Origin: an uncultured Fibrobacteraceae bacterium
GTDB taxonomy: Bacteria; Krumholzibacteriota; Krumholzibacteriia; LZORAL124-64-63
DNA length: 63,568 nucleotides
Assembly (NCBI GenBank): GCA_964399195.1
Contig: CAYNPY010000009.1
Coordinates: forward strand, 1,758-65,325
Direction: 5' to 3'
The notes under the pieces: model-generated
What the model saw: the letters and a program-made list of their open reading frames with translations, nothing else
What the model was told of the DNA's origin: nothing
The model's database searches: none
In this document: piece by piece, positions 6,075-6,400 of the stretch
Layout: the number at the start of each line of letters is the position of its first letter
Position numbering within the stretch: position 1 is the stretch's first letter
Made by a program: the position numbers and the translations under genes

Positions 6075-6103
6075 TTGACAGTTCCCCCCAAAGGGGGTAT
6101 GAT
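6075..6103 (+). promoter_or_regulatory. Near-consensus sigma70 promoter of the trp operon
   Basis: TTGACA (6075-6080), 17 nt spacer, TATGAT (6098-6103). Confidence 0.85.
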
Positions 6104-6160
6104 CACTCCCTGATCGCGGTCACACCGACCGCCACGCGCACCAACAAGTCGAGGCTCCCG

Positions 6161-6295
6161 ATGTCCGCTCGCCGCAGCCACACCGACAGGCACGCCGCCG
6201 CCCCCGCGCGCGGGCGCGGCGCCTGGCGTTGGTGGCATTGGCGGCTGACGGGCGCGGAGCCCGGCTGCGGAGCGCGCGGGGGTGCGAAGACCTGA
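6161..6295 (+). CDS. trpL: Trp operon leader peptide (44 aa, WRWWHW)
   Basis: Translated by hand (not in the ORF track): MSARRSHTDRHAAAPARGRGAWRWWHWRLTGAEPGCGARGGAKT*. Four TGG codons within 6224-6241; GAGG RBS at 6151-6154; lies between the promoter and trpE. Confidence 0.88.
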   Translation: MSARRSHTDRHAAAPARGRGAWRWWHWRLTGAEPGCGARGGAKT

Positions 6296-6323
6296 CCTGA
6301 GCCGCGACACCGTGCCGACACCG

Positions 6324-6357
6324 AGCCCGTCATCCCCGGATGACGGGCTTTCGCTTT
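6324..6357 (+). terminator. trp attenuator terminator hairpin
   Basis: AGCCCGTCATC-cccg-GATGACGGGCT followed by TTCGCTTT. The 5' arm GCCCGTCA is also complementary to TGACGGGC at 6246-6253 (antiterminator). Confidence 0.82.
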
Positions 6358-6400
6358 GTACCCGGCCGGCTTGTCCCGGCCCGCCGACAGGAGCCTCGAG

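Follow-up and report, generated by a model that had tools for sequence, protein, structure and literature searches.

A predicted ribosome-mediated attenuator precedes the tryptophan operon in Candidatus Krumholzibacteriota

In Escherichia coli, trpE is preceded by trpL (RF00513), a short upstream open reading frame (uORF) with clustered Trp codons, and by an intrinsic terminator. A strand located just beyond the footprint of a Trp-stalled ribosome pairs with the 5′ arm of this terminator. Attenuators of trp genes have also been reported in Corynebacterium and Streptomyces (Seliverstov et al. 2005, PMC1262725). In Sinorhizobium meliloti, a ribosome-dependent attenuator before trpE(G) releases a leader RNA (rnTrpL), which accumulates; this RNA and a peptide of 14 amino acids (peTrpL) act in trans (PMC6614838, PMC7298713). 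According to a survey from 2010, leader peptides were known only in Proteobacteria and Actinobacteria, in addition to the survey's own cases in Firmicutes (PMC2965389). In Bacteroidetes, a Trp peptide leader before trpE or trpB (Bacteroid-trp, RF01692) was predicted by comparative genomics in 2010; the leader is AT-rich and short, with a hairpin that the authors call loosely conserved (Weinberg et al., PMC2864571 supplement). Here, we describe a leader element upstream of trpE in a 63,568-nucleotide (nt) stretch of DNA from an uncultured bacterium of the class Candidatus Krumholzibacteriia in the phylum Candidatus Krumholzibacteriota, known from a metagenome-assembled genome of sludge or a bioreactor (assembly GCA_964399195.1, contig CAYNPY010000009.1, positions 1,758 to 65,325 of the forward strand). 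This whole stretch is called the window, and positions are counted from its first letter.

To our knowledge, Candidatus Krumholzibacteriota is known only from metagenomes. We assign a probability of about 0.85 to the reading that the element is a ribosome-mediated (leader-peptide) transcription attenuator of a trpEGD-CFB-A-aroF operon. The same proposal had been made earlier from the letters of the DNA (the sequence-only reading). It is supported by the trpE gene downstream, the conserved uORF and terminator, an upstream strand that co-evolves with the terminator, the absence of TrpR, TRAP and T-box, and leader-only RNA in metatranscriptomes.

The element shares with E. coli trpL the uORF with clustered Trp codons, the intrinsic terminator before trpE, an Arg codon beside the Trp codons, and, just beyond the footprint of a ribosome stalled at Trp, an upstream strand complementary to the 5′ arm of the terminator. 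Several features differ from those of E. coli. The E. coli leader has 14 codons with two Trp, whereas the leader in the window has 44 codons with four Trp. In E. coli, the stop codon is at the edge of the antiterminator; here, it follows the antiterminator strand at a distance of 35 nt and is located at the apex of a hairpin that measures about 100 nt. Furthermore, the Trp codons are not in the segment that pairs with the antiterminator strand and, unlike in E. coli, no TrpR repressor gene is present. With the actinobacterial attenuators (PMC1262725), the element shares a high-GC genome, a GC-rich terminator followed by poly-U, double or triple UGG repeats, and three-way complementary motifs common to antiterminator and terminator. 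However, the lineages are unrelated and no sequence similarity is seen, and the leader here is longer and carries a W-R-W-W-x-W pattern. As in S. meliloti, leader-only RNA is found; the predicted peptide, in contrast, has 44 amino acids and is unrelated to the trans-acting peptide of that species. Like the Bacteroid-trp leader, the element was predicted by comparative genomics. Bacteroidetes are the best-studied phylum of the wider Fibrobacterota-Chlorobiota-Bacteroidota (FCB) radiation, to which the host phylum also belongs.

The Trp_leader covariance model RF00513 gave no match in positions 5900-6500 (E <= 10) or in ten relatives (E <= 1), and RF01692 gave none in the window or in the ten relatives. 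Among the papers listed for the phylum, judged by titles and abstracts, none dealt with gene regulation. The sequence-only reading had known of no description in this lineage, and this holds as far as can be searched, with the qualification that a Trp leader was already predicted for the related Bacteroidetes (RF01692). In our reading, the element is a textbook E. coli-type attenuator in a phylum without an earlier description, and not a sequence member of RF00513 or RF01692.

The individual parts of the element were found where the sequence-only reading had placed them. It had claimed a consensus promoter, and the site TTGACA-17-TATGAT matches the consensus at 11 of 12 positions; it is the sole promoter-like site in 5900-6500, where 0.0 are expected from 50 shuffles. 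The claimed leader of 44 amino acids with the motif WRWWHW is present as an ORF with ATG and Shine-Dalgarno (SD) sequence. Its Trp codons are at 6224, 6230, 6233 and 6239, so that four Trp occur within six positions. The terminator stem, claimed at 6324-6349 with a U-rich tail, was also confirmed. It is GC-rich, has 12 bp and a stability of −20.9 kcal/mol, and is followed by the tail UUCGCUUUGU; a hairpin with a U-tail is present at all 53 orthologous loci described below. The minimum-energy fold of 6110-6365 ends in the terminator hairpin, and this region is more stable than shuffled sequences (z = −3.08). A consensus terminator scan of 5900-6500 did not list the hairpin at 6323-6350, because after maximal extension of the stem only four of the eight following bases are T.

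To survey the class, TrpE orthologues were collected first in 41 relatives and subsequently in 151 genomes from the phylum, and 500-1500 nt upstream of each were read. The sequence-only reading had suggested looking for Trp-rich uORFs before trpE in relatives. The layout of promoter, Trp-rich uORF, GC-rich hairpin with U-tail and trpE was detected at 53 loci from 24 genera and four families. Forty of them belong to the host's own family f1 (all loci with enough upstream DNA), nine to f4 (all), three to f8 (all) and one to f6. A TTGAC(A/G)-17/18-TAnnnT promoter was present 5′ of the uORF, at an equivalent position, in 19 of the 19 loci checked. At all 53 loci, the UGG triplets are in one frame, within an ORF ending 5′ of the terminator. 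The leaders start with ATG or GTG, in most cases behind a purine-rich SD-like stretch, and have 16-50 codons with 2-5 Trp codons. The Trp cluster is the one part of the peptide that is conserved across the class; within the genus, conservation extends to the C-terminal part TGPEPGxGARGG. The retention of the whole layout at 53 orthologous loci is the strongest argument against chance. No Trp-rich uORF or terminator was observed upstream of trpE in family f2 and in the majority of f6 loci (L021-L026, L083-L086 and L088-L089). Judged from these upstream regions, the putative attenuator is lost or replaced within the class (f2 and most of f6). With the same script, none of 13 trpE loci outside the phylum (Verrucomicrobiota, Planctomycetota, Armatimonadota, Proteobacteria, Bacillota and archaea) showed the layout.

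The position of the leader stop codon differs between families. In f4 and f6, it follows the textbook geometry, lying inside the antiterminator strand within the conserved context GGG-TAG-CGG; at locus L060, it also lies inside this strand. The stop codon of the f1 and f8 leaders is found 6-49 nt 3′ of the antiterminator strand and 22-49 nt 5′ of the terminator arm. A ribosome terminating at most of the f1 loci would still touch the antiterminator strand with its trailing edge; in the genus of the host, it would not.

Within the Trp cluster, the leaders are rich in Arg. Of the residues other than Trp, 44% are Arg in the cluster, and elsewhere in the leaders the share is 12% (53 loci). In the window, Arg codons are interspersed among the Trp codons at 6224-6244 (W-R-W-W-x-W-R). 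This enrichment could reflect an RNA-level constraint, an effect of the nascent chain on stalling, or a dual sensitivity to Trp and Arg. At L019 1251-1288 (f4) and L020 1220-1257 (f6), the leader ATG follows the predicted −10 hexamer by about 6-7 nt. Since the distance is so short, these leader mRNAs may be leaderless or nearly so.

At each locus, the antiterminator was sought as the upstream strand with the best complementarity to the 5′ arm of the terminator. In the window, the pairing proposed by the sequence-only reading, 6246-6253 (TGACGGGC) with 6325-6332 (GCCCGTCA), is exact; it comprises 8 perfect bp and extends to 15 bp as 6240-6257/6321-6337. The duplex has −24.3 kcal/mol, none of 300 coding controls was as good, and the p-value against dinucleotide shuffles was 0.045. 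Among the first 19 loci, 11 had a strand better than 95% of same-length coding controls. Compared with dinucleotide shuffles, p <= 0.05 was obtained at 24 of 53 loci and p <= 0.15 at 38 of 53. Across the class, the strand starts at a median of 16-17 nt 3′ of the last Trp codon. The Trp cluster of this genus is 18 nt long, and here the strand begins 18-21 nt 3′ of the first Trp codon. A ribosome protects about 12-13 nt downstream of its A site. Since the antiterminator strand starts beyond this distance, it lies just outside the footprint of the stalled ribosome.

The terminator arm varies by genus, with CCCGTCATCC, CCGCCATCC, CCCACCATC, CCCGCTATCC, GCCTGTCACC and CCCACTTCC among its forms; the upstream strand varies with it. 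Binding energies between the post-Trp regions and the terminator arms of 24 genera were analyzed as residuals after removal of row and column effects, with 5000 permutations. Post-Trp regions preferred their own terminator arms over foreign ones by 2.6 kcal/mol (mean residual, −2.6), and none of the 5000 permutations was as low. This sequence comparison supports co-evolution of the antiterminator strand with the 5′ arm of the terminator.

In a rival explanation, the leader would be a small gene or small RNA in its own right, with a constitutive terminator; the RNA or the Trp/Arg-rich peptide would act elsewhere, and trpE, with no Trp sensing, would depend on basal read-through or on a different start. 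A plain terminator, however, does not need a co-evolving strand. The element also stands directly 5′ of trpE at all 53 loci, no promoter-like site occurs in the 50 nt between terminator and trpE, and across the class the Trp cluster is the sole conserved part of the peptide. On the other hand, an independent gene would fit the conservation of TGPEPGxGARGG within the genus, the lack of individual significance of the antiterminator at about half of the loci, the thermodynamic dominance of the terminator in all modelled states and the leader-only contigs in RNA runs. On balance, we regard it as quite improbable.

Two further pairing schemes were tested. In the E. coli 1:2 scheme, the segment with the Trp codons pairs with strand 2. 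Here, pairing of the Trp-codon footprint with strand 2 reached p <= 0.05 at just 6 of 53 loci (p = 0.42 in the window), and the scheme was rejected as no better than shuffles. A second antiterminator candidate, 6278-6286/6328-6337, was also rejected; its complementarity is not above shuffles in f1 (p = 0.29 in the window), and a pre-stop candidate of this type is significant only where the stop codon overlaps strand 2.

The sequence-only reading had also described a 13-bp helix that encloses the Trp codons. This helix, 6199-6211/6272-6284, is present exactly, with one G-U pair and −30.4 kcal/mol. At 22 of 53 loci, the half of the leader before the Trp codons was more complementary to the half after them than in shuffles; this was not the case at the very GC-rich locus in the window.

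Folding of the RNA 3′ of a ribosome stalled at W22, W24 or W25 gave as the minimum-energy fold a hairpin of about 100 nt with 6240-6257/6321-6337 at its base; the alternative pairing of the sequence-only reading forms part of this base. A stall at the fourth Trp codon would mask the antiterminator strand. In the minimum-energy fold of 6237-6338, the stop codon at 6293-6295 is the apex of the extended antiterminator hairpin, and RNAalifold of the genus alignment also gave a hairpin around the leader stop codon. The fold of 6237-6338 alone was not significant against shuffles (z = −1.07). A ribosome on the stop codon (about 6278-6305) sits at this apex. With the ribosome in this place, forcing the basal pairing costs +7.0 kcal/mol and the terminator arm is essentially unpaired. 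The 5′ half of the leader, if free, pairs with 6243-6284, including the 13-bp helix. In these models, such a pairing would be a plausible anti-antiterminator behind an advanced ribosome or in a leader without a ribosome. The features of the element and of the operon are summarized in Table 1.

Table 1. Predicted features of the leader element and genes of the downstream operon (positions in the window)
Feature	Position	Strand	Details
Sigma-70-type promoter (predicted)	6075..6103	+	−35 TTGACA 6075-6080, 17-nt spacer, −10 TATGAT 6098-6103
5′-untranslated region (5′-UTR) hairpin	6116..6132	+	GCGGUC-ACACC-GACCGC, in minimum-energy folds
SD sequence of leader ORF	6151..6154	+	GAGG, 6 nt 5′ of ATG; read from sequence
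Leader ORF, trpL-like	6161..6295	+	44 codons + TGA; product MSARRSHTDRHAAAPARGRGAWRWWHWRLTGAEPGCGARGGAKT
5′ strand of helix around Trp codons (candidate anti-antiterminator, segment 1)	6199..6211	+	Partner 6272-6284
5′ strand of predicted antiterminator (segment 2)	6240..6257	+	Core 6246-6253; partner 6321-6337
Inner part of predicted extended antiterminator hairpin	6262..6317	+	6262-6276/6303-6317 (13 bp), 6277-6280/6296-6299, 6281-6283/6290-6292
Intrinsic terminator (predicted)	6323..6359	+	5′ arm 6323-6334 (segment 3), loop 6335-6338 CCCG, 3′ arm 6339-6350 (segment 4), U-rich tail to 6359
trpE (anthranilate synthase component I), first structural gene of the operon	6401..7930	+	TIGR00564, 543 bits (cut-off 517.7)
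trpG	~7932-8522	+	
trpD	8515-9573	+	
trpC-trpF-trpB, one open frame	~9570-12212	+	880 codons
trpA	~12220-13026	+	
3-Deoxy-D-arabino-heptulosonate 7-phosphate (DAHP) synthase (first enzyme of the shikimate pathway)	~13020-14084	+	NF006421, 463 bits; directly 3′ of trpA

The following mechanism is proposed. Transcription would begin near 6110, at the near-consensus promoter, and a ribosome would translate the leader of 44 codons. When charged tRNA-Trp is scarce, the ribosome would stall with the Trp codon at 6224, 6230 or 6233 in its A site. The mRNA would then be masked only to about 6237-6246, and 6240-6257 would be left free. On exit of 6321-6337 from RNA polymerase, the free strand would pair with it and the hairpin of about 100 nt would close. 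In this manner, the 5′ arm of the terminator would be sequestered, and read-through into trpE would follow. When tRNA-Trp is plentiful, the ribosome would pass 6240-6257 and reach the UGA at 6293, at the apex of the antiterminator, where it would unzip the hairpin and keep it open. In its wake, the 5′ half of the leader, with 6199-6211, could pair again with 6243-6284. The arm 6323-6334 would then be free for 6339-6350, and transcription would end in the U-rich tail. We infer that the apex is held open by the terminating ribosome, because in this genus the trailing edge of the ribosome would not abut the antiterminator strand. The sequence elements, their conservation, the co-evolution of an upstream strand with the terminator arm and the leader-only RNA are observations; the Trp dependence of read-through, the exact pairing of the antiterminator in vivo and the way in which the terminating ribosome prevents this pairing are predictions of the model.

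RNA from the leader was detected in situ. In metatranscriptome runs of two studies, leader-only contigs cover 6142-6320 (X25), 6142-6319 (X29), 6123-6320 (X30), 6125-6300 (X31) and 6123-6312 (X32). In three of four runs examined over 5000-9500, the trp locus is represented by no substantial piece other than the leader contigs. Of the five runs, a single one has trpE assembled. Other RNA runs contain pieces across the terminator (6314-6569, 6356-6561, 6131-6371 and 6208-6495). No RNA contig covers 6078-6122, which fits a start near 6110. In three of four DNA runs, contigs are unbroken over 5950-6750; thus, assembly artefacts of this sequence do not account for the RNA boundaries. We read these contigs as a short terminated leader RNA that accumulates in situ. 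Three of the five leader-only contigs stop 3 nt short of the terminator stem, at 6319/6320, and in X25 an Illumina adapter follows directly after 6320. This end would be the last position for cDNA priming ahead of a stable 3′ hairpin; alternatively, it would be a processing site.

By analogy with rnTrpL and peTrpL of Sinorhizobium, the terminated leader RNA (about 6110-6355), the Trp/Arg-rich peptide of 44 amino acids, or both might have a second role in trans. Such a role would fit the observations that the leader RNA is the piece of the locus most consistently assembled in metatranscriptomes, that the leader is unusually long, and that stalling alone would not require the observed conservation of the W-R-W-W pattern and of the peptide part after the Trp cluster. 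We consider this addition to the attenuator unlikely.

The UGG triplets, spaced by 3-6 nt, superficially resemble a target of TRAP, and the enrichment of Arg codons between the Trp codons could be a constraint on the RNA. A factor other than the ribosome, such as a TRAP-like protein or an uncharged tRNA, might therefore be supposed to bind the UGG repeats or the leader structure, with the ORF being incidental. However, no TRAP (PF02081) or TrpR (PF01371) gene was detected in the genome, while control genomes were positive for both (for TRAP, B. subtilis). Rfam, including T-box, also gave no match in 5900-6500 at E <= 10, nor in ten relatives at E <= 1. Moreover, the UGG triplets are in a single frame inside an ORF at every one of the 53 loci (with ATG or GTG and mostly an SD-like stretch), and the distance between the Trp codons and the antiterminator strand fits a ribosome footprint. 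Regulation by such a factor is very improbable in our estimation.

Several observations weigh against a ribosome-mediated switch. The sequence-only reading had proposed folding with constraints for occlusion by the ribosome, and the outcome was divided: the fold of the stalled state gave the antiterminator, as described above, but masks on the full leader always favoured the terminator. In equilibrium folding with ribosome masks, the complete terminator won in every state at all loci, and in this genus the stalled and terminating states were not split. A free 5′ half of the leader competes for 6240-6257, and the terminator arm is then predicted by RNAfold to pair with 6278-6293. A ribosome terminating at the stop codon of this locus leaves the antiterminator strand uncovered, unlike in E. 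coli. The antiterminator strand is weakened without compensation in L005-L007. Base-pair covariation was absent within the genus by RNAalifold (81% column identity), because the sequences are too similar. The U-tail of the terminator is interrupted in the window (UUUCGCUUUGU). The RNA contigs are strandless, and their rough depth is a poor measure of expression.

Equilibrium folding likewise favours the terminator in E. coli. Since the complete terminator is favoured at equilibrium in all states, the decision must be kinetic. When the RNA was truncated 5′ of the 3′ arm of the terminator, mixed partners were predicted. The opening energy of the 5′ arm, compared between the stalled state and the stop state, showed a weak trend over the class, with an increase at 22 loci and a decrease at 7 (Wilcoxon p = 0.009); within this genus, no effect was consistent.

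The absence of a clear switch in the equilibrium models of this genus, together with the imperfect U-tract that the consensus scan did not list, could also be explained by translational coupling or Rho-dependent polarity instead of a switch between terminator and antiterminator. However, the hairpin ends 50 nt before the start of trpE and does not reach its SD sequence (AGGAG, 6389-6393, 7 bases 5′ of the start). In relatives, the U-tracts are cleaner than in the window, with canonical tracts of U5-U9, and in three of the five runs the leader RNA contigs stop just 5′ of the hairpin. We therefore give coupling or polarity hardly any credence, and retain the ribosome-mediated attenuator as the explanation of the element.

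A sequence resembling the 5′-UTR hairpin at 6116-6132, GATCGCGGTC..., is present at the relative loci L002, L003 and L017, and the hairpin may be a stabilizer of the RNA. In one wastewater metagenome contig, an A>T variant was found at position 6092, in the promoter spacer. The DNA runs in which this sequence occurs are metagenomes of bioreactors, wastewater, sludge, sediment, wetland and soil.

The operon has the order trpE-G-D-(CFB)-A, followed by the DAHP synthase gene on the same strand, and the trp pathway is complete. The frame at 9570-12212 contains the domains TrpC (residues 33-251), TrpF (261-460) and TrpB (475-865). Since the three domains are in a single frame without an intervening stop codon, the sequence points to a tri-functional TrpC-F-B fusion protein; NCBIfam models for fusions of TrpC, TrpF and TrpB cover pairwise types only. 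The DAHP synthase gene is probably under the same Trp attenuator as the trp genes. In a whole-genome scan for amino-acid-rich uORFs followed by a terminator, the trp leader was the only convincing case. A second TrpE/PabB-like paralogue, with 43% identity to TrpE, is encoded in the genome at contig C36:6406-7737.

The 5′ neighbour of the locus is a gene for a protein of 904 amino acids with a sorting domain of the type IX secretion system (T9SS), which has a terminator-like hairpin of its own. This GC-rich hairpin at 5997-6027 (+), 3′ of the gene, has the form GGGACCGCC-GCCG-GGCGGTCCC and is followed by TTCGCG. As it shares the interrupted-U style of the attenuator tail, it suggests that the terminators of this organism are often without long U-tracts.

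The understanding of attenuation itself is unchanged by this element. In our reading, classical leader-peptide attenuation is extended to Candidatus Krumholzibacteriota, where the layout is conserved over at least four families, and annotators gain a regulatory signal for the trp operon of these genomes. Furthermore, the class offers a natural series of stop-codon positions, from those inside the antiterminator strand (f4 and f6) to those at or near the apex of the hairpin (f1 and f8). This series could be used to study how read-through is decided by where the ribosome terminates.

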